From the NCBI GenBank assembly GCA_025059235.1, contig JANXCV010000003.1, positions 43,392 to 107,391 of the forward strand: a stretch of 64,000 nt of DNA, written 5' to 3'. Position 1 is the first letter of the stretch. Every line of letters begins with the position of its first letter. The notes beneath the pieces were generated by a model, which did not search any database, was not told the origin of the DNA, and worked only from the letters and a program-made list of their open reading frames with translations. Of this stretch, positions 4,494 to 55,599 are shown piece after piece. Origin of the DNA: Candidatus Calescibacterium sp. (GTDB lineage Bacteria; DRYD01). The position numbers and the translations under genes were made by a program.

Positions 4494-5459
4494 ATGAGGG
4501 GACTACTTTACTTTCTGGGATTTTTCTCTTTACTTTCTGTAGTTTTAGGTCATGGACATAAATTAACTGAAAAGATTTATTTAGAGCTATCGAGGGGAAA
4601 CGTTTATCAAGCAGAGAGATTGGTGTATGAGGTTCTGGATGAGGATCCCCACAATATAGATGCTCTCTTTGCCAAATCAATTCTTATCGTAAAATATGCA
4701 GAAAGTTCAACTGACTCAAAATTAAAAAATCAAAGATATTCTAAAGCTATGGAAATATTAGATTTTCTGAACAAGAAACTTAATGGTTTTTACTATTATC
4801 ATTTTATAAGAGCTAAAGTTCTTGAAAACCTCGGAGCTGTTCAAGAGGCTATAAAAGAATATGACAATAGCATATTTCATAATCCCAGATTTATTGACTC
4901 TTATATTTCTAAGTCTTGGCTTTTTTGGAAGATGGGAAATATTTACGAAAGTTATAAAGTACTATGGCCAATAAAAGATAAATATAGAGCAAAAGTGCTA
5001 ATAGGATGGTATAAATATCAAGAATCCGACTATTCCGAAGCAATGAAAAACTTTAATGAAATTATAGCTAACCCCATTCAGTTCAAATCGATAAAGGAAA
5101 ATAGAGAAGTGCTCAATCAGTTATATTTTCAGATAATGTGGGTAAATTATAGAGCTAACCGTAACGATCTATACTGGATAAAACAAAATCTAAAATATAA
5201 CACAAATAATTATTACTATGTTGTATCGTCTGTGATATATGATCTGGTTGTCAAAAGAGACGATGAATTAGCGGTTAAACAGTGTTTATACAACATTTCT
5301 CTATATCCTGACAAACCATATCTTTTTTTCATTATGTATAACATACTGAAGAAGCACGATAGACAAGGTAGTAAGAATTATTTAATGTTCCTGAGGAAAG
5401 CAGTCGAACTAGATATTTATAATCTTGATTTTAGGAGAGTTCTAGATAAAGAAGCATGA
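4494..5459 (+). CDS. Exported TPR-repeat protein
   Basis: N-terminal signal-like segment; TPR-like helices (EDPHNIDALFAKS, EAIKEYDNSIFHNP). Confidence 0.7.
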   Translation: MRGLLYFLGFFSLLSVVLGHGHKLTEKIYLELSRGNVYQAERLVYEVLDEDPHNIDALFAKSILIVKYAESSTDSKLKNQRYSKAMEILDFLNKKLNGFYYYHFIRAKVLENLGAVQEAIKEYDNSIFHNPRFIDSYISKSWLFWKMGNIYESYKVLWPIKDKYRAKVLIGWYKYQESDYSEAMKNFNEIIANPIQFKSIKENREVLNQLYFQIMWVNYRANRNDLYWIKQNLKYNTNNYYYVVSSVIYDLVVKRDDELAVKQCLYNISLYPDKPYLFFIMYNILKKHDRQGSKNYLMFLRKAVELDIYNLDFRRVLDKEA

Positions 5460-6424
5460 ATGAAATTATAAATGAATATGTTAGGGTAATAGTAATATTT
5501 TTTAGGGAGACAAATCCTTGGGTAATTGGCCCTATAGTTTTTATCTTCGGTGCAATCTTTGGAAGCTTTATTAATGTGTTGATTTATAGGCTACCTTTGG
5601 AAATGGATATCGTGTTCAAACCTAGCTTTTGCCCAAAGTGTAAGAAGAATATAAGATGGTATCATAATATACCCATTTTTAGTTATTTGTTTTTAGGTGG
5701 AAAATGTGCTTACTGTAAAGAAAGGATAGATATCAGTTACTTTGTTATAGAAATACTGACCGCTTTATGTTTTTTACTCTTCTATGTTTTGTATGGTATA
5801 ACCTGGGATTTTCTAGTACTTTGCATTTTCTTCGTTTTATCACTGCCGGTTTTGATTATTGATTTTAAGTACCATATAATTCCTGACGAGCTTTCTATAG
5901 GGGGATTTATTATAGGGTTATTTTTAGGATTGATTCACACTTTTATTGGGTTTGATAATAATGTTAATATAACGGTTAGTATTCTTGATAGTATTTTAGG
6001 TGTTTTGGTGGGGGTATTAATTTTTGGTGGTATATACTTTTTTTCGTTTTGGATATTTAAGAAGGAGGGTATGGGACTTGGGGATGTAAAATTTTCTGCT
6101 ACCATAGGGGCTTTTCTAGGTTCAGCTCCATCACTCGTAGCCTTCCTACTGTCCTTTATCTATGGTTCACTATTCGGAATAATTCTAATGATATATAAAA
6201 GAATAAAAAATACTAAAAAGATAAAGCTGTTGTCATATTTCAAAGATTTTAATGTTTCCAGCGATTACTTAACTTCTATAGTTAGAGTATACACATATCA
6301 TACTGAGCTTGATCAACTGAAAAGTAGTTACATTGCTTTTGGTCCATACATGGTTTTGGCTGCTTGGACTTCTATATTCATATCTCATCAAATAACTGAT
6401 ATATTCCTGGGTGAAATCATATGA
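5456..6424 (+). CDS. pilD: Type IV prepilin peptidase / N-methyltransferase (A24)
   Basis: GSFINVLIYRLP, CPKC...CAYC zinc site, IDFKYHIIPD, GMGLGDVK and AFGPY motifs. Confidence 0.93.
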   Translation: MNEIINEYVRVIVIFFRETNPWVIGPIVFIFGAIFGSFINVLIYRLPLEMDIVFKPSFCPKCKKNIRWYHNIPIFSYLFLGGKCAYCKERIDISYFVIEILTALCFLLFYVLYGITWDFLVLCIFFVLSLPVLIIDFKYHIIPDELSIGGFIIGLFLGLIHTFIGFDNNVNITVSILDSILGVLVGVLIFGGIYFFSFWIFKKEGMGLGDVKFSATIGAFLGSAPSLVAFLLSFIYGSLFGIILMIYKRIKNTKKIKLLSYFKDFNVSSDYLTSIVRVYTYHTELDQLKSSYIAFGPYMVLAAWTSIFISHQITDIFLGEII

Positions 6425-9556: not shown

Positions 9557-10228
9557 TTATGGATTAAGATTGATAATGTTTATTAGGTAAACAATAAGTG
9601 GATTGTTGACTTTTGCGTTTCTATCTTTGATATATCTAGAAAATTCTCTACCATATTGATCAGATGTATAAGTATAGAAACTTATCGATAAATTTTGAAA
9701 GATGATTTGATCGTATCTTCTTTGTCTGTTTATAGGTGTAGTCTGTATTTTTATGAGATTAGTAGCATTATTTTCGAAGTTATACAGGTATGTGGTTGTT
9801 ACATTATTTGTTGATCTCAAGACGCAAAAATCTTCTATTTTCCAGAAAACATTATCTGGCAAGTAAGCGAAGTTAATGGTGTTTGTTTTATCGAAATATA
9901 TAACCACTTTGCGGTAATTTTTTTTATTAATTTTTTCTTGTCTATAATATAGCTCTACTAATGTTTTTGTTGACGAACCTTGTACGCTGTATATCTGTAA
10001 GACATTTGAATCTAATATTCGTAGATTCAGTATCCCTTTATCATATAGTATTCTTTCAATTTTGATTGCTGTTTGTTTAATTTTTATGTCTGCTTCTTGT
10101 ACGTATCCTACTTTTTTGTTGTACTTAGATAGAACTAGAAGAGTTTGAATGATTATTGTTAAGAGTAGTGAGATAATTCCGATGCTGACTGTTAATTCTA
10201 TAAGTGTTAGGGCTTTTTGTTTTTTCAT
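9557..10228 (-). CDS. Prepilin-type (class III signal peptide) minor pilin / pseudopilin
   Basis: MKKQKA|LTLIELTVSIGIISLLL: basic leader, Glu at +5, hydrophobic helix. Confidence 0.8.
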   Translation of the reverse strand: MKKQKALTLIELTVSIGIISLLLTIIIQTLLVLSKYNKKVGYVQEADIKIKQTAIKIERILYDKGILNLRILDSNVLQIYSVQGSSTKTLVELYYRQEKINKKNYRKVVIYFDKTNTINFAYLPDNVFWKIEDFCVLRSTNNVTTTYLYNFENNATNLIKIQTTPINRQRRYDQIIFQNLSISFYTYTSDQYGREFSRYIKDRNAKVNNPLIVYLINIINLNP

Positions 10229-10659: not shown

Positions 10660-10741
10660 TATCTCGAAAAAAGTTTAATTTACATAACTGAAGGGATATT
10701 AATAGTAATAAAAAAGAAATATCTTGAAGGAGGGGGTATAA

Positions 10742-12877
10742 ATGATGATTATTGGTTCTAGTAGTTGGTCCAATTTTGGGTTAGGTATATCGATAGCAGG
10801 CGATGTAACTCAACAGGATATAAAACAGGTAGAGGAAGCTATAAAGCGAGATAAACCCTTAGAAGACCTTGGATTTGATACAAACTTTCGTATAGAACAA
10901 ACTCCCAGAGACATGTCTAATATTTTTTCGAAAACACTTTCCAAATTTGATATGGGTATTTCACAATTAACCAACCAGATATCATCTTTGAAAAGAAAGC
11001 TTGCTAGCTTAATGAGGAGAAAATTTAAACCTTGGAGTTTGATAAGAGAAATAAAGAGAAAAATCAAAGAATATACTAAGGGGTTAAAGAATCTAAAGAA
11101 ACTGAGATCAAAATATCTGAATACTAAATCTAAAACACAAGGTGTAATCAACAAAAATATAGGTCATTTTACTGGTTCTATGGAAGCTAGGGATGCTTTA
11201 TATAACAGAGGAGCGAAACTACTTTCCAAGTTTCCGCAACTGCAAGGAGACTTTAGATTTCTATTAACTCGGTTCAACATATCCGTTCCTCCTGAAATGG
11301 TCAACCAAAATCCCTTTATAAATTTAGGTGCTTTCAGTATGATAGGGGGTATGTTGGGAGCTTCAGCTCTTGGAGTGCTTAGTCATGCACAACTTGGTTT
11401 TATTATGCAAGTACACGATGTTAATCAGCTAGTTAGTATGCTGAACTTATGTATATCAACACATCAAAATCTTATGAATAATCTAACAATTCTTAACAAA
11501 GCTGAAGCTTTTGAGAGTCAGAAAATCATGAAGCTACAGATGGATATGTTAAGATTCACCCAAGCCCAATCTTTTGCAAAAATGAGAAAAGTTTTCTTCA
11601 AAGGTAAAGAAATGATGTTCAAAGGATTCAGCAAGATACTAGATAAAGTGAGTAAAGTGGTTAATAAAATGGCTGTAGCTTTAGAGAAGGCTGCAGCTGG
11701 ATTGGAAGCAGCTGCAAATGCGGCACAGTCTATCCCACTTGTTGGACCTGCAATAGCTGCTGCTCTTAGAGCTGCTGCTAAAGCTCTAAGAAAGATCGCC
11801 AATATGCTCAAAAAAGCTTCCAAAGTTCTCCAGCAAAAGGCAAAACTCATGCAAAACAAAGCTAACCATATGTCAAAAATGCAAAAACTAATGAATAAAA
11901 GAATCAATTTTCTACAAAAGCTTAAAAACAAAACATCCCAGATGTTGGAACAAACAAGGAATAATCTTCTACAAATAAGAGAAAGAAAAAAGCTCGTAAT
12001 TAATAACTTGAAGTTGAATCAAATGCTAATGAATATGATAATTATGCGTTTAAGGATGTTGGGAGAAAATCCGATGTTACCTAATTTAGGATTTCCTAAC
12101 TTTCCAAATCAGGGATTACCATTGTTGCCTCTAGGTGTCCCGAGAGTTGATATGCCAGGATTAGGTATAATGCGTCCAGGTTTACCTATTGGTATGGGTT
12201 TGCCCAGTAGTATAGGTTTACCAGTAGTTACTCCACCTATGAATTTACCTGGCACGATGATAAATCTTGGAAGTGGGATGTTCTTGGGTGGAATTATGTT
12301 AAGCTTGGTCAATCCTATGATTGGAATTCCATTAATGATGACGGGATTGACTTCAATCATGGCCGGTAGTACGTTAGGTATGCAGAGAGGTTTAATGGGT
12401 ATTAACCCATCTGTATTGGGTCAAGGATTGGGACCTCTTGCAGGATCAGTAAGTGGTATATTCAGACCTACTAATGTCAAGCAACAAGCCGAGCAACTTT
12501 TAACACAATTAGCACAAAATATTCTTAATAACCGAAATAACCCACAAGTACATATGTATAGACAAATGTTGAAGCATATATACATACAAGTAGCTCAGAG
12601 AATTGATTTGTCTCCTCAAGTGAAGCAACTCGTTTCTCAAGCAGTTGGTGAAAATCTTTCTCACATCTCACCCTCTACTGTTGGGATGATCACTGGAGCT
12701 AGTATGGGATTAATGATGGGTATGTTTATGGGGGGACCATTAGGAGCTATTGCTGGACTTGCAGCAGGTACTATCGTAGGGGGGATAACTGGAACTATTC
12801 TAGGAACTATGAATAGATTTATTGCCAGTGCTCAATTAAACTACCTAGGTGGAATCATGTTAAATGCTACATTCTAA
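10742..12877 (+). CDS. Uncharacterised basic coiled-coil protein with hydrophobic hairpin and glycine zippers (translocator/pore-former-like)
   Basis: Strong RBS (GGAGGGGG). Long helices flank AAQSIPLVGPAIAAA; Pro/Gly/Met-rich linker; C-terminal GxxxG zipper (GGPLGAIAGLAAGTIVGGITG). No Sec signal. The CDS is secure; the function is inferred. Confidence 0.6.
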   Translation: MMIIGSSSWSNFGLGISIAGDVTQQDIKQVEEAIKRDKPLEDLGFDTNFRIEQTPRDMSNIFSKTLSKFDMGISQLTNQISSLKRKLASLMRRKFKPWSLIREIKRKIKEYTKGLKNLKKLRSKYLNTKSKTQGVINKNIGHFTGSMEARDALYNRGAKLLSKFPQLQGDFRFLLTRFNISVPPEMVNQNPFINLGAFSMIGGMLGASALGVLSHAQLGFIMQVHDVNQLVSMLNLCISTHQNLMNNLTILNKAEAFESQKIMKLQMDMLRFTQAQSFAKMRKVFFKGKEMMFKGFSKILDKVSKVVNKMAVALEKAAAGLEAAANAAQSIPLVGPAIAAALRAAAKALRKIANMLKKASKVLQQKAKLMQNKANHMSKMQKLMNKRINFLQKLKNKTSQMLEQTRNNLLQIRERKKLVINNLKLNQMLMNMIIMRLRMLGENPMLPNLGFPNFPNQGLPLLPLGVPRVDMPGLGIMRPGLPIGMGLPSSIGLPVVTPPMNLPGTMINLGSGMFLGGIMLSLVNPMIGIPLMMTGLTSIMAGSTLGMQRGLMGINPSVLGQGLGPLAGSVSGIFRPTNVKQQAEQLLTQLAQNILNNRNNPQVHMYRQMLKHIYIQVAQRIDLSPQVKQLVSQAVGENLSHISPSTVGMITGASMGLMMGMFMGGPLGAIAGLAAGTIVGGITGTILGTMNRFIASAQLNYLGGIMLNATF

Positions 12878-12880
12878 ATT

Positions 12881-13480
12881 ATGGAAAACATAGAGAAAGA
12901 AATAGAAAAGATAAACGAGACAATTCTCAAAGGAGTTGAAAACAAAGACTTACTAGTATTAAGAAAAGGTATTACTGAACTAAAAAATATCTTGAAGATA
13001 ATTTATGATGATATAAACGAATGGAAAGAGAATATCGACTCTAGTGAAGAGGTACCTATTATCTTTGAAATCATTCCAAACCTGCAAAAGGTGAATGATA
13101 TTCTACAAGATCTCCTAGCATATCTAGAAAAGGAAAAATTAGATGAAAAAGACCTTGAAGAGATAAGACAACTAGAAAATGAAACCGAACAGATAATAGA
13201 GATAATTGAAACCCTCACTGAATTGCCTGAAGAAGATGAAGATGAAACTGAAATCGATTTAGAAGAAGAAATAGAAAAAATTATGCAAGAAGATGAAGAA
13301 ATAGAGGAAGAATTTGATGAAGATCTAGATGACACCGGCAATCAATACATAAATTCAATCCTAGAAACCATAAAGGTTGCTATAGATAACCAAGATCACG
13401 AAAAAATAGAGGATGAAATTCAAAAACTGATGAATTATATTTCGTCTGATATTGATGATAAAAATCATGAAGAAAAATGA
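12881..13480 (+). CDS. Highly acidic helical protein
   Basis: Starts 3 nt after the previous stop; roughly one third Asp/Glu. Confidence 0.7.
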   Translation: MENIEKEIEKINETILKGVENKDLLVLRKGITELKNILKIIYDDINEWKENIDSSEEVPIIFEIIPNLQKVNDILQDLLAYLEKEKLDEKDLEEIRQLENETEQIIEIIETLTELPEEDEDETEIDLEEEIEKIMQEDEEIEEEFDEDLDDTGNQYINSILETIKVAIDNQDHEKIEDEIQKLMNYISSDIDDKNHEEK

Positions 13481-14057
13481 GAAAATACTAATTATTTTCT
13501 CTCATCCAAGAAAAAATAGTTTTAATTCCTTTATTCTGAGCAGAATACTTCATGTTCTTCAAGAGTATAATCTGGATTTTGTGATCAGAGATTTATATGA
13601 GATAGGTTTTGATCCCGTGTTAAAGTTTGAGGAAAATTTGCATGATATCATGATCGAGCAGAATTATATTCGAGACAGTAACTTATTGATTTTTATATAT
13701 CCTGTTTGGTGGGGTTCTATGCCTGCTATTCTAAAAGGATATATCGATAGAGTTCTTTCTTACGGTTTTGCATATACTGTAGATGGTGAAGGTAACTCTA
13801 TTCCTCTATTAAGTGGCAAAAAATCTATCATAGTTTCTACCCTGGGTGGTGAAGAAAAAACATACAAAGATCATTCACTAGAAGAAGCTATAAAGAAAAT
13901 AAACAAACATATAATCTTTGAATTCTGTGGAATAGAATTAATAGAGCAATTTTTTATCTATGGTGTCAAGGAAAATAACAGAAAGGAGTTAGAAGAAAAA
14001 GTAGAAAAACTTGAGCAAAAAATTAGGGAAATAATATATGCATTGTATTCTCATTGA
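13452..14057 (+). CDS. Flavodoxin-like NAD(P)H:quinone oxidoreductase (KefF/MdaB family)
   Basis: SHPRKNSFN, RDLY and YPVWWGSMPAILKGYIDRV motifs. Likely start is ATG at 13467. Confidence 0.9.
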   Translation: MMIKIMKKNEKILIIFSHPRKNSFNSFILSRILHVLQEYNLDFVIRDLYEIGFDPVLKFEENLHDIMIEQNYIRDSNLLIFIYPVWWGSMPAILKGYIDRVLSYGFAYTVDGEGNSIPLLSGKKSIIVSTLGGEEKTYKDHSLEEAIKKINKHIIFEFCGIELIEQFFIYGVKENNRKELEEKVEKLEQKIREIIYALYSH

Positions 14058-14437
14058 TCTGAAAAGGTATTTGTATTATTATTAAAATAGCTCACTTTGA
14101 TGTTTTGATAGGATTGTTTCAGTATTTTATATGGATCGTACTGACTGAGATGATTGGTTATATTTACTGGATGAACTTGTATGGATGGAATATTTGTTGG
14201 ATTTATTACTTTTAAAGGATTATAAAAATTTGGGGTAACTTGTATACTTACTGGTGATATTGTTACTGGGCGTATTGATACACCCTGTATAGACGTTGTT
14301 GATACGGATACAGGGGATATACTTTTTGATCCTATCGAGACTGGAGCTATACTTACAGATGGTACTGTTACACTTGAGTACGAAATAGATAAAATAACTA
14401 TTACGAATGTTATTATTATTGTTATCTTTCTTATCAT
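14051..14437 (-). CDS. Small exported protein with (V/S/T)-S-I-x-(P/G/S) pentapeptide repeats
   Basis: AGGAGG RBS, signal peptide, then VSIAP VSIGS KSISP VSVST TSIQG VSIRP VTISP VSIQV. Confidence 0.7.
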   Translation of the reverse strand: MIRKITIIITFVIVILSISYSSVTVPSVSIAPVSIGSKSISPVSVSTTSIQGVSIRPVTISPVSIQVTPNFYNPLKVINPTNIPSIQVHPVNITNHLSQYDPYKILKQSYQNIKVSYFNNNTNTFSDQ

Positions 14438-15254: not shown

Positions 15255-17138
15255 TTACGTTGCCTCCATTTTTTGAAGCTTTTCTTTTATTTTTTCTAGA
15301 GATTTTTTTAATTCGCTTATTCTGTTTTCATATTCTTCTTCTGTAATTTCTCCTATACTTTTTAGGAATTTCAATTCATTTATTTTTTTGAGTATATTTT
15401 CTTTTTCTTCTTGTAGTTTTTTTATATCTTCTGGTGTAATTTGTTTTTTTATTTCTATGGTTATTTCTTCGGTTTGTATTTGTTGAGAGAGAACCTTTTC
15501 GCTGAGAGGTTCTTCTTGTAGTTTTTTCTCTATTTTTTTCTCTATCTTTGAAAGTAGGTGTTCTATGTTGATTTGTTTTTCTGTTTCTGTCAATTCAATT
15601 TTTTTAGTTTGTATTGATTCAGTTTTTTGAACGTTTGATATTTCCTTTTGTGTGAGATTTGGTATGCTTATTTTTTCGGGTAATTCTAGCTTTTTGGGTG
15701 ATATATTTTCTTCCTTAGGGATTTGAATTTTATGCGAAGGGATTTCTTTTGGTTTTTGAGATTCTTTATTTTCTTCTGTTTTTTCTGGTTTTGTTTGTTT
15801 TATAGGGGATAATTTTGTAGGAGTTTCGGCTTCTTTTTCAGCTTCCTCTAAGAATTTCAGGAAAATAGATGTATCATATTTTATTTCTTTCGCTTCAGTT
15901 TTTACTTCTTCCAAAATCCTTTGGTTTATTATGTTTTCATCTATATTTTGTGTTTTTATATTGATTTTCTTTTGGGTGGTATCTTCAATAGTTGTTTGAT
16001 ATTCTGAGGTTTTTTGTTCTGGAATTTTTTCTTCTATGGTTTTCTGGATTTTATCCTCTGAAACTTTTTGATTTATTATATTTTCTCTTTCTAATTCTAG
16101 GATTTTTTGTTCGATATTTTCGTAAATTTTTGTTTCTTTTACTTTTTGTTTTTGTTGTGCTGCTTGCCATCTAATTGTTTCGGCTTTGAAGTTGGAATAA
16201 GAATAGAAGAACATATCCAGTGGTAATTTCATCTGTTTTAAATAAAGGGTTATTATATCTTCATAGTTAGGGAATATAATTACCCAGTGTATATAACCTA
16301 GGTTATCGATTTGGCTAGTCAAAAAGTTAAGGAACTTGTTTCCGTACTTGTCTAGTATTAGTACTTCTGGATATGATTTATGTTTTAGTATAAAGTAGAG
16401 TGGATTAAAGTTTACTATTGTATAATCTTCTATTTTGTGATCTGTTTTTATTATGTATTTTGTGCCTGTTTTGCTTATGAAATAAATTCCTTTTTTTTCT
16501 TGTTCTTGTAGTATAAAGGCACAATCTCCTTCGTTGTTAATGAAGAAATCTAGTATTTCCACGTTTTCAATCGAAAAAGATAATTCTTCTACGTAATTTA
16601 TTAGATTTATTTTTTGTATTGACATTTTCTGGGGATCTGCAACTAATATGTAATTTGCTAAGGGGGATAGTTTAAAAATAAACAAGTCTTCTTGTTTGTC
16701 TACCTTTTTGGTTAGAATTATTTCTTCTCTTTTTGTGCTTATATTCAGGACACCTAATTCTTGTATAATTATCCCTTTCTTTGTTAACTTACTAAATATT
16801 GATTTATCTTGAGTTATTCTTGTAAAGAAAATTTTGTTTTCTTTAGGTAATAGAGAAAAATCTTGTATTTTTCCTCCTTCCTTGAAGTATTGATTGAGTG
16901 TTTTTGTTTCTATGTTGTCTTTTTCTGAAAAATAGAGAATTTTGAGTTCGTTATTTTGAAGTACTAGTAGTTCTGCTTTATCAGAAAGAGATATTACCTT
17001 TGTGTCTATTCCCGTTATTTCTACTTCTGTGATAAAAGTCCTTTCTCTATACAAATAGAATTTATTGTTGTAAAATAGACCGAAATACTTCAGGTTAGGT
17101 GATGATAAGGATGTTAATCCATGCGAGGATATATACAT
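15255..17138 (-). CDS. Hypothetical protein: beta-rich N-terminus, charged linker, C-terminal SHOCT-like motif
   Basis: The track start (17336) overlaps the divergent response regulator, so ATG at 17138 is more plausible. The C-terminus reads LKFLKSIGEITEEEYENRISEL. Confidence 0.65.
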   Translation of the reverse strand: MYISSHGLTSLSSPNLKYFGLFYNNKFYLYRERTFITEVEITGIDTKVISLSDKAELLVLQNNELKILYFSEKDNIETKTLNQYFKEGGKIQDFSLLPKENKIFFTRITQDKSIFSKLTKKGIIIQELGVLNISTKREEIILTKKVDKQEDLFIFKLSPLANYILVADPQKMSIQKINLINYVEELSFSIENVEILDFFINNEGDCAFILQEQEKKGIYFISKTGTKYIIKTDHKIEDYTIVNFNPLYFILKHKSYPEVLILDKYGNKFLNFLTSQIDNLGYIHWVIIFPNYEDIITLYLKQMKLPLDMFFYSYSNFKAETIRWQAAQQKQKVKETKIYENIEQKILELERENIINQKVSEDKIQKTIEEKIPEQKTSEYQTTIEDTTQKKINIKTQNIDENIINQRILEEVKTEAKEIKYDTSIFLKFLEEAEKEAETPTKLSPIKQTKPEKTEENKESQKPKEIPSHKIQIPKEENISPKKLELPEKISIPNLTQKEISNVQKTESIQTKKIELTETEKQINIEHLLSKIEKKIEKKLQEEPLSEKVLSQQIQTEEITIEIKKQITPEDIKKLQEEKENILKKINELKFLKSIGEITEEEYENRISELKKSLEKIKEKLQKMEAT

Positions 17139-17265
17139 CTCTACTATATTATTTTTATGGAGATCTAGATTTTTTCCTCTTAATCTCAAAACTGGAAAGA
17201 AGAAGGACAAAAATCTTGTAGAATATCTATTAATGTAGATAGTTCTTTTTAGGGGGGTTGATAAG

Positions 17266-17661
17266 ATGGAAAAAGTAGGGAAGAAAATCCTAATAATAGA
17301 TGATGAGGAGAATATAGTTGACTTATTATCGAACATTTTAGCTCACTCGGGTTTTGTTACAATTGGAGCATTTAATGGAGAAAGTGGGCTTGAAAAGGCA
17401 AAAAAAGAAAAACCACACATAATAATACTCGACATCATGATGCCTGGTATGGATGGTTTTGAAGTCTTAAAGAAACTAAAAGAAGATAGTGAAACGGCTG
17501 AAATACCTGTTATAATGTTAACTGCAAAGACAGAGGATTCAGCAATCATCGAAAGCTGGCGCAAAGGAGCAGAATTCTACATACCAAAACCCTTTGAAAT
17601 AGAAGAATTACTACATGTGATAAACCTTATTCTTAAATCCAAATATGCAGAGACTAGCTGA
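17266..17661 (+). CDS. Single-domain response regulator (receiver only)
   Basis: LIIDDE, ILDIMMPGMDG, MLTAK and YIPKPF motifs. Confidence 0.93.
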   Translation: MEKVGKKILIIDDEENIVDLLSNILAHSGFVTIGAFNGESGLEKAKKEKPHIIILDIMMPGMDGFEVLKKLKEDSETAEIPVIMLTAKTEDSAIIESWRKGAEFYIPKPFEIEELLHVINLILKSKYAETS

Positions 17662-40633: not shown

Positions 40634-40701
40634 AGTTTTTTCTAATCTCTGAGGATTTTTTCATCGATTTTTATAAATATAAATTGGAGGTGATGATTTT
40701 C

Positions 40702-43700
40702 ATGTCTAGCAGAAAAGGGATTCTTCTTATTAGTACACTGTTCTTCGTAGTTGTATTAATAATGATGTCTATAGCTTTATTTGGTCTAACAAGAACGAAT
40801 TATCAAGTAAATAGGGAATACTTTGCTAATCAGAAATCGATTACCAATGCTGAGAATGCAATCCAGATAATGATGTTTCTAATCCAGCATAACCCAAATG
40901 CTTTTGAAATAAGGGATAATCAAGTCTGGTTTCCTCTTGATGATCAACATAACCTTTTGCCCCAAATAAGGAAGGTATTGACAGATCAAAACTTTATGAG
41001 AAATTTGCCATATTTTTACATTTTCGTTGATTTAAGCAATAATGAGATTATACAGCATAACTACATTACTAATCTTCCAAGAATATCTATAGATGAGCGT
41101 GCTGAAAAAAAAATGTATGCTGTAATTTTTGTTCCCAAGAATAAGGATATATCTGAAGAGGGAGTAGTTCTATTTTTTGGTAATCATCTTCATCCTGAGA
41201 ATATAACCCGTAAAGATAATGCTAATCTTGCTTTTTATAGAATAAATGGACGGGGAAATGTAACTTTTTACATAAGCAGTGTTCCAAATAATAATGCTTT
41301 CCCAGTGTACTCTTCTTTAAATAATGGAAATTCCGATGTAGAAATAAACAAAATATCTCCGCAGAGTAGTAGGCAAATAAAAAAGTATTATTTGTCTCTT
41401 TTCGTAACTAGTTATTCTCTGGTTCCAGGTACACTAAGATATAAAGTAAACTATATTGAACAGCATTTTTTGAGATCATCAATGATACAAGCTAATTTAC
41501 TAAATACTGGAACTACTAACATACGAGCAACGAAACTAAACATAATTTCAGATTACTTTGAATCAAACAAGTTTATCTCTAAAAAATATGAATACTTATC
41601 TTTAGAATCCACCAAGTTTAATTCTCCTACTTCTTCTACTATCAAGGGAAAGTTGATTTCTAAAGATACAAATAATGCTGGCTTAAACTTCCAAGGACAA
41701 GATTATAGTTTTGAACAAATACTATCTAGCCCAGATTTATACAATCAAGTAAAAAACACTATACAGGCTGATTTACAAACCACCCAGAATATTGGTGATA
41801 CTAAAAAACTACGAGATTTTATCGTAAATAAAATAAGACAACAATCATATGTTTCACTCCCCCCAGGATGGTATGTGTTTAAAGATGGAAATAAACTAGT
41901 ATATTTCCCTTCATATTATACATATGATCAGGTTAAAAATGATATTGGAAATGTAGAAACAAAAGCAGAAAGATTAAATGAATTAACCCCAAACGGACCA
42001 GTTATCATAGAAGATCGTCTTATGGATTCAAGTGGTGAAAATGTTGTTTTCGAAATAAAAGATTATAATTTAAAAATTTCTACAAATATTAAGGTTGATG
42101 GTAGTTTCATTCATATAACAAGTTTTGGTGATAGCTATTTTGGTAACAGGGATATAAGAATGGAATTAAACGGCACTACATTTTTTGCTGAGAATTCTGC
42201 GATAGTTGTAGATGGAATGATAAAGGGTGTAGGGAGTTTGGTTGCTACCGGTGATGGAAGTTTTTCAGGACATCGTGCTATGAACTACTATGATCTAAAT
42301 CTAAATTCTTACTGGTCTCCGTATAGTTCATCAGATCCAGCACACCCTGTTTACCGGGGGGATGTCATAGCAAGGTTTGATCAATTGAGAAGCCCAAATT
42401 CTAACGTAGCAATCATAGCCGATAATAATTTCATTGTTAACCCCCTTTCTAGTCAAGATAATATTGACTTTTTTGATAAACTAATTTTGTCAGAGTTGAT
42501 AAAATATGCTTCAGATCCCACTTACAATAATAGTGACAATAACTGGCGATTGGTTTACAATAATAGTGACAATAACTGGCGATTGGTTTACAATAATAGT
42601 GACAATAACTTGCTATTGGAAAGTGATCCGCGAGGTGGTAACTCTACTACTTTTAAACCTACTACTTTTTTCCAACTCATTTTAGATAATCCAGAAAATA
42701 TTGATCAGTTGTTTGTGCATGGAGGAAAGCTTAAGTCAAAGGATCCGGCGTTGAGTAATTATATTATTAAGATTAGTAGTTCTCAAAGTGGAAATCAAAG
42801 TCAAAGTTCAATGCTTGTAGATCCTCGTATCTTTAGTTCTAGTCCTCTGTATAGCAATAATAATCCCAATAATATTTTCGATAGAATAGTAAGTTACACT
42901 ACTAGTAGTGATCTTCTAATGAATAAATCAATTTCGATTAGTTCCAGTGGGATAAATATTTCTGATAATCCTAATAATACTACACGCATACCTACAGACA
43001 GACTTCCTTTTCTGAGTGCTCTCGGAAGTGAAACATATGATTTTTCCGGCGCAGAGTGTATATCATATTGGAACGATAATATTGCTTTTTTAATCGTGGG
43101 ATATGGAAGTTCTAGTTCCACAGCTGGACTACATGTATTTGTTTTTGAAAAACCAGCCAATCAGGGGTCGTGGATAAAAGTTTTTGACAGGAGAATTAAT
43201 GCAAACATAAGCCCTGACAATGTTAAAGGAGTATTTGATGATATCGATTCGATTGATTCGGATAATGATATAACACTGGAGAAGTTAGCTATTATTCTTG
43301 AAGCTGCTATGAAGAATGACGGAAACCTTCTAAATTGTTGGGAAGGAGTAGATAAGAGGAATGAAGGAAAAATTAGGGAAAGAGGAACTTCAATTATAGG
43401 GAATAGACTAAAGGGATTGTATAGTGATTATTATAAAATGTTAGCTGAGAATGGTCTAAGTTCCAGAGCTGGTAATTATAAGGAATTATTTAGCGAACAA
43501 AAAGTTAATGAAAATTATTTTCCTTTTCTAATGGTGAAAGGTGGTATTCAAGCTGGCGAAAAAGCAAGAGATCTTTTAGAAAGAAATAGGTTGAAAATTG
43601 ATCCAACTTCGGATTTGGTGGGGTTTTCAAATCTGGTAGTCAATAAATATGAATTTGCATCTTTATACCTTTCAAAACCATCAGATGTAAAGTTAGAGGG

Positions 43701-43935
43701 ATTAATATGGGTTGGTAAGAACTTTAAAGCTGTTACAGGTAGAAGGAATAATCTACTTTTGAAGGGAGCAATAATAGTTGGTAGAGATCAAGATGCTATG
43801 CTTGGTATAAAAGGTGTAAATAATACATCGTTTATTTTTGATACTGACATAATAGATATGTTAGAAAATGCAGCGGCTCCGTCAATAATGATACCTGTAT
43901 TTTACAAGCAATATGATAAAATATATACGCGATAA
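40702..43935 (+). CDS. Large PilX-like (type IV pilus / T2SS minor pilin N-terminus) surface protein
   Basis: MSSRKG|ILLISTLFFVVVLIMMSIALF...AENAI matches the PilX N-terminal pattern. GGAGGTG RBS precedes ATG 40702. Body is beta-rich and Asn/Ser-rich. Confidence 0.72.
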   Translation: MSSRKGILLISTLFFVVVLIMMSIALFGLTRTNYQVNREYFANQKSITNAENAIQIMMFLIQHNPNAFEIRDNQVWFPLDDQHNLLPQIRKVLTDQNFMRNLPYFYIFVDLSNNEIIQHNYITNLPRISIDERAEKKMYAVIFVPKNKDISEEGVVLFFGNHLHPENITRKDNANLAFYRINGRGNVTFYISSVPNNNAFPVYSSLNNGNSDVEINKISPQSSRQIKKYYLSLFVTSYSLVPGTLRYKVNYIEQHFLRSSMIQANLLNTGTTNIRATKLNIISDYFESNKFISKKYEYLSLESTKFNSPTSSTIKGKLISKDTNNAGLNFQGQDYSFEQILSSPDLYNQVKNTIQADLQTTQNIGDTKKLRDFIVNKIRQQSYVSLPPGWYVFKDGNKLVYFPSYYTYDQVKNDIGNVETKAERLNELTPNGPVIIEDRLMDSSGENVVFEIKDYNLKISTNIKVDGSFIHITSFGDSYFGNRDIRMELNGTTFFAENSAIVVDGMIKGVGSLVATGDGSFSGHRAMNYYDLNLNSYWSPYSSSDPAHPVYRGDVIARFDQLRSPNSNVAIIADNNFIVNPLSSQDNIDFFDKLILSELIKYASDPTYNNSDNNWRLVYNNSDNNWRLVYNNSDNNLLLESDPRGGNSTTFKPTTFFQLILDNPENIDQLFVHGGKLKSKDPALSNYIIKISSSQSGNQSQSSMLVDPRIFSSSPLYSNNNPNNIFDRIVSYTTSSDLLMNKSISISSSGINISDNPNNTTRIPTDRLPFLSALGSETYDFSGAECISYWNDNIAFLIVGYGSSSSTAGLHVFVFEKPANQGSWIKVFDRRINANISPDNVKGVFDDIDSIDSDNDITLEKLAIILEAAMKNDGNLLNCWEGVDKRNEGKIRERGTSIIGNRLKGLYSDYYKMLAENGLSSRAGNYKELFSEQKVNENYFPFLMVKGGIQAGEKARDLLERNRLKIDPTSDLVGFSNLVVNKYEFASLYLSKPSDVKLEGLIWVGKNFKAVTGRRNNLLLKGAIIVGRDQDAMLGIKGVNNTSFIFDTDIIDMLENAAAPSIMIPVFYKQYDKIYTR
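42522..42610 (+). repeat. Perfect 33-bp in-frame tandem repeat, about 2.7 copies
   Basis: Unit TTACAATAATAGTGACAATAACTGGCGATTGGT, encoding YNNSDNNWRLV. Confidence 0.95.
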
Positions 43936-46297: not shown

Positions 46298-48796
46298 TTG
46301 ATGATGTTATCTGAAGATAGTATCCAGAATGTAATAACTAATCTTCTGTTAAGCAAAAATAAAGTAGATTTTTTGGAGAAAGTAAAAGATAAATTTACAG
46401 ATTCCGAAAAATATTTCGTTATATCTAAGCTAGCTGAAGTATATAACGATTACAAAAGTTTAACTGCTAATTCTGATGAGAGTAAAATAAACTTGTTGAT
46501 AGAAGGATTAGCTGAAGAAATAAAAAATAATCATAATCTACTACTTGATCTGCTGAAATCTACGGATGATACTCTTTTTGAGTTATCTGCTCAGAAAAAT
46601 GGTATAAAAAAAGAAATCTTGGATCTCCTATCTATTGAGGCTCAATCTACAGATTTTGCAATCAAAGTCGATAGTTTCCTTGATGATTATAAACTAGTTT
46701 TAAATGAATTGAGTCAGAAGAAATTCCTCGATGATGATGTATCTCCCAAGAGATTCGCTAAAATAAAGAGAATATATGAAAAGATTTTCTCTATGATTGA
46801 TGAAACAGTTAGAATTATTTTCTTTGAATCAAATGGATTAGGCTTGTATAACAAATATTCTTTGATCGATTCTATTATCGAGGAAATGAGAATACTAAGA
46901 GAACTGATATATAAAGTTATAGAGAAAGTTGAATTAATCACAACTATCACAGAAAAAGAGAAAGAACTTGAAGAAAAGTACGAAGAAAAAGAAACTTCCA
47001 AGATAGGTGAATTTAGTATACAACAAGAAATCCATCAAATACAAAATACTCTTGAGCAACAAAATGTAATTGTAAAAGAGCAAGATTTTTATCAACAAAA
47101 TATAAATCAAGAAGGGACTGTTCAGAGCGAGACTGTTCAACAGGATGTTCATAAGGAAGAAATAGTTGGATATGAAAGTGTTGAGCAGCAGACGGGGTTG
47201 GCTTTGGAAAAGGAGTTTGTCGATCAAGAAGCAATAGAAGGGTATAATATCGAGACTATCCAAGGAACCATTCAAAGTGAAACTGTTCAACAAGATGCTT
47301 ATCAAAATGAAATATATGAAACTATTGAACAGAAAAGAGAGATGGAACTAATTATAGAAGAGGGATTTACTAATCAGGAAACAATAGAGGAATATTCTGT
47401 TGAACAAAAAACTACGCAGAATATAGATTTTCAAACTGAAATAGTTCAAAAGGAATTTATTGATCATAATATTCAGAGAGAAACAGTTATTGAAGAAAGT
47501 AATACTGAACAGATTGTTATCAATCAAGAAATAGCAGAACACCAATTTAATCAAACAGATGCTTTTAAAGGAGAAATAATCCAGCAGGATTTTGCTATTA
47601 CAGATGATCAGCAAAAAATTATCGATCAACAAATTTTTTCAGAGAATTTACCAGAGGTTGCTAGTGTTTCAGAAGATATAGTACAACCGGTAGGCCAAGA
47701 ACAAAAGGGTATAAGTATCCTAGACATTAGTGATTTACTATCTGAGTTTGAAAAAGTAGAAATTGAACAGGATACTGATAATCTTGATTCTGAAGTTATC
47801 TTTGATACAGGAGAATTGAGAATAGAAAAAATAGAAATTCAGAATGTTTTTCTTGAATCTTTTGAACAAACTACTGATTCTGACACAAAAGTATTCAATG
47901 AGGTAATAGAAGAGGGACCTGATTTGAAGGAGACTTCAGAGTCACAGGAAAGTATAATTGGGTTTGAAGAGAATTTGATTCCTCAGGAATTTAATTCTAC
48001 TACTTTTGAGCAATCAGGAATATTGGTCCATGAGAAAGATATAGGAGATGTATTGGGGGAGTTGGAATTCGAACAGGAACAAACTCATTTTGAACAGGAA
48101 AAAGCTTATAATCAATACGAATATGAAGTGGAAAAAGTCTCTCAAGAAACTATCCTGAAAGATATAACTTCTTCTATTGAACTAGCTATACCGGATGATC
48201 AGCAATTAATTAAGGTTAGTCAAATAGATGAACTTGCTGCTATTTTAGAAGAACATCAAAAAGATATCCAAACAGCTCCTATTGATATAGATCTTGGAGA
48301 TATAGATCTTTCCAGTATAGATTTATCCGATATAGATTTGTCTGAGATAGATTTATCTGGTATAGATTTGTCAAATGTAGAACTGGATTTAAGTGGTTAT
48401 AGTGATGATTTAGCTGAAAAAGACGAAAAAACTAGCATAACATCAGATACTAGTGAATTAGAAAAACACACCATTAATTTTGTATACAATAAAGAATTAG
48501 ATGTAAAGATCCAAGAGGTTGAAAAAATTTTTGCAAATCAGGATATTCAAAAAATAATCTATTTAAAGAACAATGAATATTCTTATTATTCAAAGGACAA
48601 AACTGTTGATAACAATGAATTGGTTTTACTAAAAAATGTTGAGAATATATCTTTTAGTAACTTATATTTTGAGAGGGGTAAGAACTTTGGATTTTTGTTG
48701 AAAAGTAGTGGGGAAATGTTATTAATAATTTTTGGGGAGGGTGTTCAGGTTGGTCCTGTAAAACTAAAAATCAAAAACATAACCCTGGGGGGATAA
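46298..48796 (+). CDS. Large acidic, largely disordered protein with a possible C-terminal Roadblock-like domain
   Basis: Helical N-terminus, Glu/Gln-rich middle with an internal duplication, IDLS repeats, C-terminus LLIIFGEGVQVGPVKLKIK. Confidence 0.6.
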   Translation: MMMLSEDSIQNVITNLLLSKNKVDFLEKVKDKFTDSEKYFVISKLAEVYNDYKSLTANSDESKINLLIEGLAEEIKNNHNLLLDLLKSTDDTLFELSAQKNGIKKEILDLLSIEAQSTDFAIKVDSFLDDYKLVLNELSQKKFLDDDVSPKRFAKIKRIYEKIFSMIDETVRIIFFESNGLGLYNKYSLIDSIIEEMRILRELIYKVIEKVELITTITEKEKELEEKYEEKETSKIGEFSIQQEIHQIQNTLEQQNVIVKEQDFYQQNINQEGTVQSETVQQDVHKEEIVGYESVEQQTGLALEKEFVDQEAIEGYNIETIQGTIQSETVQQDAYQNEIYETIEQKREMELIIEEGFTNQETIEEYSVEQKTTQNIDFQTEIVQKEFIDHNIQRETVIEESNTEQIVINQEIAEHQFNQTDAFKGEIIQQDFAITDDQQKIIDQQIFSENLPEVASVSEDIVQPVGQEQKGISILDISDLLSEFEKVEIEQDTDNLDSEVIFDTGELRIEKIEIQNVFLESFEQTTDSDTKVFNEVIEEGPDLKETSESQESIIGFEENLIPQEFNSTTFEQSGILVHEKDIGDVLGELEFEQEQTHFEQEKAYNQYEYEVEKVSQETILKDITSSIELAIPDDQQLIKVSQIDELAAILEEHQKDIQTAPIDIDLGDIDLSSIDLSDIDLSEIDLSGIDLSNVELDLSGYSDDLAEKDEKTSITSDTSELEKHTINFVYNKELDVKIQEVEKIFANQDIQKIIYLKNNEYSYYSKDKTVDNNELVLLKNVENISFSNLYFERGKNFGFLLKSSGEMLLIIFGEGVQVGPVKLKIKNITLGG
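48281..48392 (+). repeat. Degenerate 15-bp repeat encoding IDLSx pentapeptides
   Basis: IDIDLGDIDLSSIDLSDIDLSEIDLSGIDLSNVELDLS; ATAGAT recurs every 15 bp. Confidence 0.85.
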
Positions 48797-53982: not shown

Positions 53983-55599
53983 ATGACGGTTAGACCTGGT
54001 GCCACAAGACCTACAAGACCTACGACTGCCACCAGGGTTGCACAACCATCTTCAGGACAATCCTTTACAAACGTCTTTGATACTATAAAGGGATTAGATA
54101 CAAAACAAAAGATAATAATCGTTATTGTGCTTGTTGTTATTATTGGTATAGGGCTTGGAATATTCTTCTATACCAAGAGTAATGAATATGTACCTTTAAT
54201 TCCGGGTGCGAAGTTGGATGCAAACCAGTTGTCCAAAGTTAAGCAGTACCTTGAGCAGAGAGGAATAAGGGAATATAGGATAGATGATGCAATAGGCCAG
54301 GTGTATATTCATCCAAGGTATCACAACACAGTCTATGTTGATGTAATATCCGAAGGTTTTGTTAAGCCTGATGTTAAACCCAAATTAGAAAGTATTCCTC
54401 CTGGAACCACGAAAGAAGCTTGGATGAGCTATCAAAAAAGTCTACTTGAATATGCAATATCGAATATGATAAAAAGGAACTATCAGGGGAAAGTAAATGA
54501 GGTTAACACGTTTATTACATATCCCGAAAATAATCCTTTTAGTACTGAACAGGAAGTAACGAAGGCTACGGTAAGTATAAACACTTTTGCTGGTCAATCT
54601 TTGACCAATGAAGAAGCTAAAGGTGTTATAAGTGCCGTTGCTGGTGCTGTAAGAGGACTTGAACCACAGAATATATCCCTTATAATAAATGGGAGAGTAG
54701 TTAGGCCATACGAGGAGGAACCTGCAGAAAGCGCCTTCCTAATAAAAACCAAAATAGAAGAACAATACGCAAACAAGGTAAGGAACGCATTGGATCAAAT
54801 TTTAGGACCCAATAATTATACTTTTACCATAGATGTTCAGTTAAGGTGGGATAAAGTTGAGAAGTATGCTGAAACATATGGGAACATGGCAGACCCTAAC
54901 TCCAAAATTATTTCCCGTCAGACAACTGAAAAGTCCAAACAGTATGAAGGCGGTGCAATTGATAAGAATAAAGAATCGGCTGAGGAAAGACAGAGACAGA
55001 CGATTGAAAATAGAAAGGTAGATATGGTTATAACCAAAATTCAACAGAATCCCGGAGAAAGTATAGAAAGAATATCTGTTGCTGTGAATGTCTCGAATGC
55101 AAGCTCGACTACTATTTCTCAAATACAAGCATATGTAAAAAATGCAGTTGGTCTTAGAGAAGAGAGAGGAGATTCAATTGTCGTAACTAATATTCCTCAT
55201 GCCTATATAGCAACTGCTGTAAGTAACAGTAATCCAACACCTATGGTTATACCAACTGCTCCAGTTAAACAAGACTTTCCAGTCGGATTAGTGGTGTTAT
55301 CTTTGACGGCTACTATTGGTGTAGCTGCAACAGCCATACTGATCATATTTATGCTTAAGCAAAACAAAGCTAACCACGAAAGAGTATCTATATCGTTTGA
55401 TTCTAACCCGACTAACTCAATATCTATGGATTCTACGAATGTAGTTGATTTAACAACGGATAAGATGGGTAATAAAACAGAGGTAAATAAAGAAAGCAGA
55501 GAGATGAAGACTATTGTTAGTGAGATAGAGAATTTAGCTAAGAGTAATCCAAATGAAGTGGCAAATCTACTCAAACAAACTTGGTTCAATGAAAAATAA
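53983..55599 (+). CDS. fliF: FliF-like MS-ring protein (YscJ/FliF family)
   Basis: N-terminal TM followed by YVPL; AGAVRGLEPQNISLI; IERISVAVNV; VKNAVGLREERGDSIVV; second TM; tail NPNEVANLLKQTW resembling the FliG-binding end. Confidence 0.85.
   Translation: MTVRPGATRPTRPTTATRVAQPSSGQSFTNVFDTIKGLDTKQKIIIVIVLVVIIGIGLGIFFYTKSNEYVPLIPGAKLDANQLSKVKQYLEQRGIREYRIDDAIGQVYIHPRYHNTVYVDVISEGFVKPDVKPKLESIPPGTTKEAWMSYQKSLLEYAISNMIKRNYQGKVNEVNTFITYPENNPFSTEQEVTKATVSINTFAGQSLTNEEAKGVISAVAGAVRGLEPQNISLIINGRVVRPYEEEPAESAFLIKTKIEEQYANKVRNALDQILGPNNYTFTIDVQLRWDKVEKYAETYGNMADPNSKIISRQTTEKSKQYEGGAIDKNKESAEERQRQTIENRKVDMVITKIQQNPGESIERISVAVNVSNASSTTISQIQAYVKNAVGLREERGDSIVVTNIPHAYIATAVSNSNPTPMVIPTAPVKQDFPVGLVVLSLTATIGVAATAILIIFMLKQNKANHERVSISFDSNPTNSISMDSTNVVDLTTDKMGNKTEVNKESREMKTIVSEIENLAKSNPNEVANLLKQTWFNEK

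Follow-up and report, generated by a model that had tools for sequence, protein, structure and literature searches.

A chromosomal gene pair encoding a basic coiled-coil hairpin protein and an acidic neighbor, a candidate docking module in two bacterial phyla

The described proteins closest in outline to the one reported here fall into several classes. Toxins of the ClyA family (ClyA, Hbl/Nhe, MakA, AhlB/SmhB, XaxAB/YaxAB/PaxB and Cry6Aa) combine a helical-bundle base with a long hairpin and a hydrophobic head and carry no Sec signal; translocators of type III secretion systems (T3SS; SctE/IpaB class) likewise join a coiled-coil hairpin to hydrophobic segments, are made without a Sec signal and are encoded next to a small acidic gene; and the signaling hairpin of methyl-accepting chemotaxis proteins (MCPs) is an antiparallel coiled coil with arms of about 100 residues, in which conservation is highest at the tip. 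The few bacterial coiled-coil devices that dock to membranes include, besides chemoreceptor-like hairpins, PspA/Vipp1 and DivIVA, the latter bearing a hydrophobic and basic cap for docking to the inner leaflet. Here, we analyzed a gene pair in a 64,000-nucleotide (nt) stretch of contig JANXCV010000003.1 of Candidatus Calescibacterium sp., a hot-spring bacterium; this whole stretch is referred to below as the window, and all coordinates are counted from its first letter unless stated otherwise. The pair encodes a basic protein of 711 amino acids (aa), hereafter the hairpin protein, which is predicted to share features of these classes in outline, and directly downstream an acidic protein of 199 aa, its putative partner. 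The original prediction had proposed a membrane-attack module. We favor, at a probability of roughly 0.4, an undescribed membrane- or protein-docking coiled-coil module that would be controlled by the acidic partner.

The likeness to each of these systems is accompanied by clear differences. ClyA-family toxins are among the best fold matches of the hairpin protein model, yet HlyE, Bacillus_HBL and related Pfam families gave no match at E ≤ 1, the hydrophobic cap is the most conserved part rather than the least, the distribution resembles that of a core-genome gene, and the neighbor is an acidic helical protein instead of a second toxin component. Unlike T3SS translocators, the hairpin protein has no family match and no adjacent injectisome genes, and its partner has neither a Pfam family nor a significant Foldseek match of any kind (best E 0.64). 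Unlike MCPs, it gave no MCPsignal (PF00015) match (E ≤ 1 for the 711-aa protein, E ≤ 0.01 for 13 relatives), its tip is made of small and hydrophobic residues, sensor, HAMP and transmembrane input domains are missing, and the whole chain is strongly basic. Compared with ESCRT-III/PspA/Vipp1, its helices have about double the length, the acidic portion is encoded by a gene of its own, Pfam PspA_IM30 and Snf7 do not match, and the fold score lies within the helical background. DivIVA, with which the comparison is by description only, is a parallel dimer with crossed loops, whereas the 711-aa protein is a predicted single-chain hairpin.

The gene pair and its predicted fold

The hairpin protein is encoded at 10742..12877 (+), with a Shine-Dalgarno sequence (AGGAGG, 10728..10733, +) 8 nt ahead of its ATG, and the partner follows after a gap of 3 nt at 12881..13480 (+), exactly where both genes had been placed originally. 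With 86 Lys/Arg against 32 Asp/Glu residues, the hairpin protein has an isoelectric point (pI) of 10.7, and the imbalance is most pronounced in its final 390 residues, which hold 36 Lys/Arg and 8 Asp/Glu; the scarcity of acidic residues noted there before was real, the earlier count of 7 being one too low. The partner is the reverse, with 67 Asp/Glu among its 199 residues (33.7%, the "about one third" of the prediction) and a pI of 4.05. We ranked both proteins among 1162 crude open reading frames (ORFs) of at least 120 aa from the window's own genome. The partner is the second most acidic of all, and the hairpin protein ranks first in Met fraction (7.6%, compared to a median of 1.8%), 27th lowest in Asp/Glu content and 39th in net positive charge. 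Because of these ranks within one genome, the charge contrast between the two proteins goes beyond chance; it is real and extreme for the host proteome. No Sec signal is visible by eye in the 711-aa sequence, and the N-terminus is polar and variable among relatives, its reported Ser-richness being modest (5 Ser in the first 17 residues). Hydrophobic windows cover residues 192-222, 331-349, 504-545 and 653-690, and residues 451-500 contain 12 Pro and 8 Gly, in line with the further hydrophobic segments and the Pro-rich linker that had been proposed.

An AlphaFold2 model built from a 28-row family alignment (mean predicted local distance difference test score, pLDDT, 74.6; predicted template modeling score, pTM, 0.53) describes the 711-aa chain as an all-helical protein. 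All segments lie on the + strand. A first helical hairpin, residues 51-144 (helices 51-91 and 98-144; 10892..11173), is modeled at pLDDT ~87-92; combined with the base of the long hairpin, it matches four-helix bundles over roughly residues 38-365. The long antiparallel hairpin itself, residues 227-439 (11420..12058; pLDDT mostly >85-90), is made up of two ~100-residue helices (227-328 and 335-439), as had been read from the sequence; the net charge of its second helix (351-441) is +20. The turn between the two helices is formed by AAQSIPLVGPAIAAA, which begins at residue 327 (nt 11720) and belongs to a tip region, residues 316-350 (11687..11791), that is the most conserved element of the family by alignment and identities. 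Its signature comprises E/D, nine small or hydrophobic residues, IP(F/L)VG(P/A)A, six variable positions and R/K.

Beyond the hairpin, a Pro/Gly/Met-rich linker of variable length among relatives (residues 442-500; 12065..12241; alignment columns 515-760) is modeled as disordered (pLDDT 35-38) and leads to two poorly conserved, Gly/Met-rich hydrophobic helices (residues 502-552; 12245..12397; pLDDT ~55-75). These are followed by a conserved three-helix C-terminal domain (residues 577-640; 12470..12661; pLDDT 87-93) with the motif IYxQ(I/V)AQRIDLSPxVxQLVSQAVGENL, which aligns with LYxQIAxEGVEI...AL(E/x)GS of distant relatives. The chain ends in weakly conserved hydrophobic helices (residues 644-696; 12671..12829) that resemble a glycine zipper, as the original prediction held, at a model confidence below 50. 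The partner model (pLDDT 70.3) is likewise helical, with four helices (residues 2-113) that a disordered acidic segment (114-150) separates from a helical hairpin (155-196).

We compared the hairpin protein model with the Protein Data Bank (PDB) using Foldseek and obtained no match at E ≤ 0.001. The best row was the ClyA-family toxin MakA (E 0.022), followed by vinculin, Rad50, HblL1, AhlB and chemoreceptors; by the tool's own warning, helical models reach E-values of this level without kinship. At the level of the models, the matches to ClyA-type toxins, chemoreceptor hairpins, ESCRT-III and structural maintenance of chromosomes (SMC) proteins are what any long helical bundle would be expected to give, and the ClyA-type likeness that had been anticipated was no better than that to the other three. 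In the Atlas comparison, no row reached the lead level of 0.9. The modeled fold, a helical bundle carrying a long hairpin with a hydrophobic cap, resembles several known systems and appears to be a member of none of those compared.

Profile searches led to the same picture. Pfam and NCBIfam scans (E ≤ 1) gave nothing close to a cut-off for either protein, including translocator, toxin and chaperone families, and the expectation that no known housekeeping family would account for them was borne out. PHROGs and PADLOC returned coiled-coil hits below threshold only, with no tail family in PHROGs, where the best hit (3.1e-05) was an 85-position family of unknown function lying over the Gly-zipper. 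A sequence profile search of the PDB returned only de novo designed coiled coils and Gp316/JADA (E 0.0024), all of which we judged compositional, and weak hits to ZorA, LmuB, SMC and DUF745 were set aside as coiled-coil composition, all far under their cut-offs. By sequence, then, neither protein falls into a described family of Pfam, NCBIfam, PHROGs, PADLOC or the PDB.

Conservation and distribution of the family

Close relatives of the hairpin protein are few. A phmmer search of 1.84 billion representative proteins yielded 29 at E ≤ 1e-3, and a search of a 5.8-billion collection with profile A1 returned close relatives only, all unnamed or "hypothetical"; scanning metagenomes with a smaller alignment gave only two loci. 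For the partner, a word-indexed homolog search returned nothing but the partner itself. Distant members (phmmer E 1.8e-16 to 2.8e-04) align over residues ~200-450, and those that are named are each a "hypothetical protein" of metagenome-assembled genomes labeled Armatimonadetes/Armatimonadota bacterium. What they have in common is the tip, (V/L)(E/D)AAAxAxxxIP(F/L/Y)VG(P/A)A(I/L)xAAL(R/K), an RLxxLG that ends the second helix, and a C-terminal LYxQIAxEGVEI...ALxGS aligned to residues 577-640. The 711-aa protein carries the family signature, and profile A3, built from the distant group, matches the window gene at 2.3e-47.

Conservation is strongly concentrated in the tip, which is 87% identical in close relatives, 71% in the most divergent member of the window's family (G003) and 53% in distant relatives, in which the flanking helices retain 20-24%; P332, G335 and A327 are invariant in 28 of 28 alignment rows. 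The C-terminal domain follows with 72%, 61% and 23%, respectively. The hydrophobic Gly/Met segments are the least conserved (33-43% identity), with at least half of the segment aligned in 5 of 18 distant rows for residues 502-552 and in 2 of 18 for the other segment, which speaks against the proposed membrane-attack module. Net charge is positive in all 28 family members, that of the second helix ranging from +2 to +27. As the best-conserved element, the tip fits a specific contact site better than it fits a lipid-facing toxin segment.

The hairpin gene was present in 9 of the 10 genomes of the bacterial family that includes the window's own (8 of the 9 others), the lone miss being a genome of 90% completeness in 250 contigs (G007); it was not found in the single genome of the sister family (73% complete). 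Among ~390 genomes drawn from other families of the domain, profile A3 matched one (G149), and in the class around it the gene occurred in 6 of 7 genomes, including 5 of 5 high-quality ones. In the phylum of G149, the second phylum with the gene, which was recognized there by its hairpin core, 32 of 301 genomes matched, mostly within eight families (f141, 5/6; f282, 2/2; f284, 5/5; f287, 1/1; f275, 1/1; f288, 2/3; f290, 3/5; f291, 13/16), and in 0 of 207 genomes of the largest family; these denominators, like those of the FHIPEP and PilM scans described below, include eight or nine genomes flagged unpublished, none with the gene. Most genomes hold one copy, and several of the second phylum hold two. 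The order RidA, hairpin gene, partner is preserved in genus g1, and a tblastn search of 50,697 phage and 72,556 plasmid records returned no match. The gene pair is chromosomal, syntenic and vertically inherited, with a core-genome-like distribution.

Linkage to an acidic neighbor, which had been predicted, held in both lineages. An acidic helical gene lies directly downstream of the hairpin gene in all eight loci of the window's family in which downstream DNA is present, the contig of the ninth locus stopping inside the hairpin gene. Using profiles built here, we found an analogous acidic helical gene adjoining the hairpin gene in 19 of the 32 second-phylum loci, and in 12 of the 25 that had not been used in profile building. 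It is mostly just downstream, but upstream in one locus (L100) and on the opposite strand in another (L090), and its product, of 210-315 aa, in many cases carries a CxxC...CxxC zinc ribbon at the N-terminus. A second companion, resembling GCN5-related N-acetyltransferases (GNAT), stands beside the pair in 10 of the 32 second-phylum loci, and two of its members reach Pfam Acetyltransf_1 (3.1e-14 and 5.6e-04); no counterpart adjoins the window's pair. The GNAT-like genes include L076 12607-13416, L080 11604-12185, L081 10486-10989, L099 2360-3208 and L101 13691-14551.

A coiled-coil protein of ~415 aa with a similar polar N-terminus is encoded elsewhere in the window's genome (G000:C22:115474-116697; L027) and at L012 2881-4134, L013 3043-4284 and L054 11783-13024. 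It reaches E 0.017 against the 711-aa protein in BLASTP, and profile A3 matches it at 1.2e-10 (G003) and 1.2e-14 (G008), suggesting that it may be a distant paralog. At the genus g1 loci L012, L013 and L014, the gene after that for the ~415-aa protein encodes a membrane protein of the DUF4126 family, an assignment that Pfam confirmed at L013.

A proposed docking module and its alternatives

The reading that we prefer, in which the pair forms a docking module, takes the hairpin protein as a docking device of the cell's own envelope. From a four-helix base, a two-helix antiparallel coiled coil with arms of about 100 residues would project, capped by the nearly invariant turn E/D-x9-IP(F/L)VG(P/A)A-x6-R/K, and a disordered Pro/Gly/Met linker would lead on to the conserved three-helix C-terminal domain, flanked in the window's lineage by the Gly/Met hydrophobic helices. 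The cap and, in that lineage, the Gly/Met helices would be embedded in the cytoplasmic membrane, lie on its surface or hold on to a membrane protein, while the polybasic coiled coil would rest against an anionic surface. The acidic partner would bind and neutralize the coiled coil and in this way set when it is free; in the second phylum, the adjacent GNAT-like acetyltransferase might modify the many lysines of the hairpin protein. What the data show directly is the gene pair with its composition, predicted fold, conservation pattern, distribution and linkage; we infer the docking of the tip to a membrane or protein, the binding of the two proteins to each other, their intracellular location and any role of the GNAT-like protein. 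Three features, namely that the hydrophobic cap is conserved best, that the rod is polybasic and that the gene is chromosomal and maintained throughout whole families of two phyla, argue for a specific contact site and for equipment of the cell itself; they argue against a mobile toxin, in which lipid-facing parts would be free to vary. The acidic neighbor and, in one phylum, the acetyltransferase fit control of a basic surface.

Several observations weigh against this proposal. There is no acidic partner in 13 of the 32 second-phylum loci, and between the partner families of the window's lineage and of the second phylum no homology was detectable (hhalign probability 0.95%); conservation of the partner is therefore positional and compositional only. 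A search of sequencing runs listed no RNA run that contains this stretch. The proposed intracellular location derives from the positive charge and from the fact that no signal peptide is apparent. In addition, judged by identity to the window's genome within the family (39-66% for the hairpin protein and 29-52% for the partner, compared to 80-89% for FlhA), the 711-aa protein evolves much faster than a core machine, at a rate that surface or exported proteins typically show as well.

If the docking reading is correct, the pair would define a compact, recognizable new family, with a basic 100-residue hairpin, its invariant hydrophobic cap and an acidic controller, that is conserved in two distant bacterial phyla and nowhere annotated. 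The few bacterial membrane-docking coiled-coil devices named above would gain a further type, and the charge-split two-gene design of the pair, together with the GNAT gene in one phylum, suggests a directly testable switch.

Among the alternatives, the one that survives best, although we consider it unlikely, stays close to the original prediction and takes the hairpin protein as an exported, membrane-inserting protein, similar to alpha-pore-formers or translocators, that is kept soluble by an acidic chaperone or immunity protein. The missing Sec signal behind a variable, polar N-terminus, the start of an acidic gene 3 nt downstream and the fast evolution of the pair are all compatible with export, as are the modeled hydrophobic hairpin tip, the Gly/Met-rich helices and the ClyA-like outline. 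This outline did not translate into a Foldseek match at E ≤ 0.001 or into a toxin, translocator or chaperone family in Pfam or NCBIfam; the hydrophobic segments are unaligned in most distant relatives, with the tip the most conserved part. The genomic setting also speaks against a membrane-attack module, a claim that we do not uphold: the pair has a core-genome-like, syntenic and vertical distribution, no match in the phage and plasmid collections, and no adjacent secretion, lysis or immunity genes. Were an exported pore-former to be the answer nonetheless, it would constitute a new alpha-pore-former or translocator class in deep-branching thermophiles. Under either reading, the tip signature and the profiles make the family searchable.

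Somewhat less probable still is a chemoreceptor-like cytoplasmic hairpin for signaling or scaffolding, the tip of which would bind a soluble kinase or adaptor and form arrays with no direct lipid insertion. Conservation peaks at the tip, as it does in chemoreceptors; in the Atlas structure rows for P0020, nine of ten were MCP clusters, seven of them with template modeling scores by query of 0.56-0.65, and Ser/Thr kinase genes lie near the hairpin gene in two second-phylum loci. These points are countered by the failure of MCPsignal to match the protein or its relatives at the thresholds given above, by a tip of small and hydrophobic residues that is unlike the chemoreceptor tip, and by the Gly/Met helices and polybasic surface of the window's lineage, which suggest membrane contact.

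A narrower form of the export reading, which we hold to be very doubtful, would make the pair a late substrate and its export chaperone, served by a filament-less flagellar-type type III export apparatus of the lineage. Genes for FlhA, FliP, FliF, rod proteins and a switch protein of the FliK type are spread across several contigs of the window's genome. In the window, fliF is at 53983-55599 (Pfam); elsewhere, an flhB-like ORF, its N-terminus read by eye, adjoins flhA (G000:C22:369276-372518), a confirmed fliP stands with fliN, fliO and fliQ read by eye (G000:C24:167956-169554), FliK-like and rod genes occur together (G000:C11:252599-255252), and a further site is listed with the flagellar gene set (G000:C22:58727-59929). 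Flagellin, FliS and FliD were not found; the search for FliS and FliD covered just the window's genome, whose completeness is 87.6%, so that "not found" differs from "absent". Across the order, FHIPEP was present in 11 of 11 genomes versus Flagellin_N over its cut-off in 0 of 11, and the order may keep a flagellar apparatus without a filament. Such an apparatus is known from Buchnera. The lack of a Sec signal by eye and a small acidic helical gene next in line, as with flagellar chaperones, would suit a cargo of this kind.

FHIPEP was also found, by family-level counts, in every second-phylum family that holds the hairpin gene (f141, 6/6; f282, 2/2; f284, 5/5; f287, 1/1; f275, 1/1; f288, 3/3; f290, 5/5; f291, 16/16). 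It is near-universal in that phylum (287 of 301 genomes), and its presence in all families with the hairpin gene therefore says little; co-occurrence with FlhA was rejected as a link because it does not discriminate. One genome (G010) has FlhA but lacks the hairpin gene, no flagellar gene adjoins the hairpin gene in any locus examined, and the two proteins gave no Pfam match to Flagellin_N, Flg_bb_rod, FliS, FliT or FlgN, and hence neither an axial-protein domain nor a flagellar chaperone family. Nothing was found that ties the gene pair to the type III apparatus. If it were such a substrate, the hairpin protein would be a membrane-inserting cargo of a filament-less flagellum, that is, of an export system that arose independently of the injectisome.

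Finally, a domesticated phage tape-measure-like protein, suggested by size, basic charge, helicity and Gly-zipper segments and by viral clusters in the Atlas feature rows (0.76-0.86, under the 0.9 lead level), is highly improbable given PHROGs hits that are sub-threshold only (the best being that noted above), a tblastn search of the phage collection without a match, a window devoid of phage genes and conserved chromosomal synteny.

Neighboring genes of the pair

The window neighbors of the pair are housekeeping genes; no secretion, lysis, immunity, injectisome or phage genes adjoin it. The placement of the pair outside any recognizable secretion cluster, part of the original prediction, needs qualification in that a pilin-like gene with an N-terminal methylation motif lies 0.5 kb upstream (9557-10228, -; Pfam 1.9e-05, over cut-off) and fliF is present in the window, but it stands insofar as neither was shown to be linked. 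A prepilin peptidase gene is found 4.3 kb upstream (5456-6424, +; Pfam). We rejected a consistent link to type IV pili. Pfam matches or inspection by eye had placed pilin-like or T2SSF genes near the hairpin gene at 5 of the first 12 loci, but a regular-expression scan of all 32 detected a prepilin-like ORF at only 4, and PilM was distributed alike in families with and without the hairpin gene. Pilin-like genes are scattered through the window's genome, for example beside the FliK and rod cluster on C11.

A gene for a flavodoxin-fold NAD(P)H oxidoreductase (13452..14057, +; Pfam Flavodoxin_2 3.5e-44) overlaps the 3' end of the partner gene and is a possible third cistron, yet it is probably not part of the module, because it occupies the same position in only 3 of the 8 assessable family loci. 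Its best NCBIfam rows include the ancillary proteins KefF and KefG, under their cut-offs.

Further along, a small repeat protein with a signal-peptide-like start, consisting almost wholly of PVSIS / SPVYV-type repeats, is encoded at 14051-14437 (-), and likewise at L003 414-782, L011 2212-2568 and L054 16297-16728; it has no family match, and both genera of the family retain it no more than a few kb from the pair. Three large ORFs of the window have no Pfam family at the thresholds used: 15255-17336 (-; 693 aa), 40684-43935 (+; 1083 aa) and 46298-48796 (+; 832 aa). The 693-aa product is Glu/Lys-rich and has a SHOCT-like end (E 0.0014), and the 832-aa product is among the most acidic proteins of the genome (Asp/Glu fraction 0.22).

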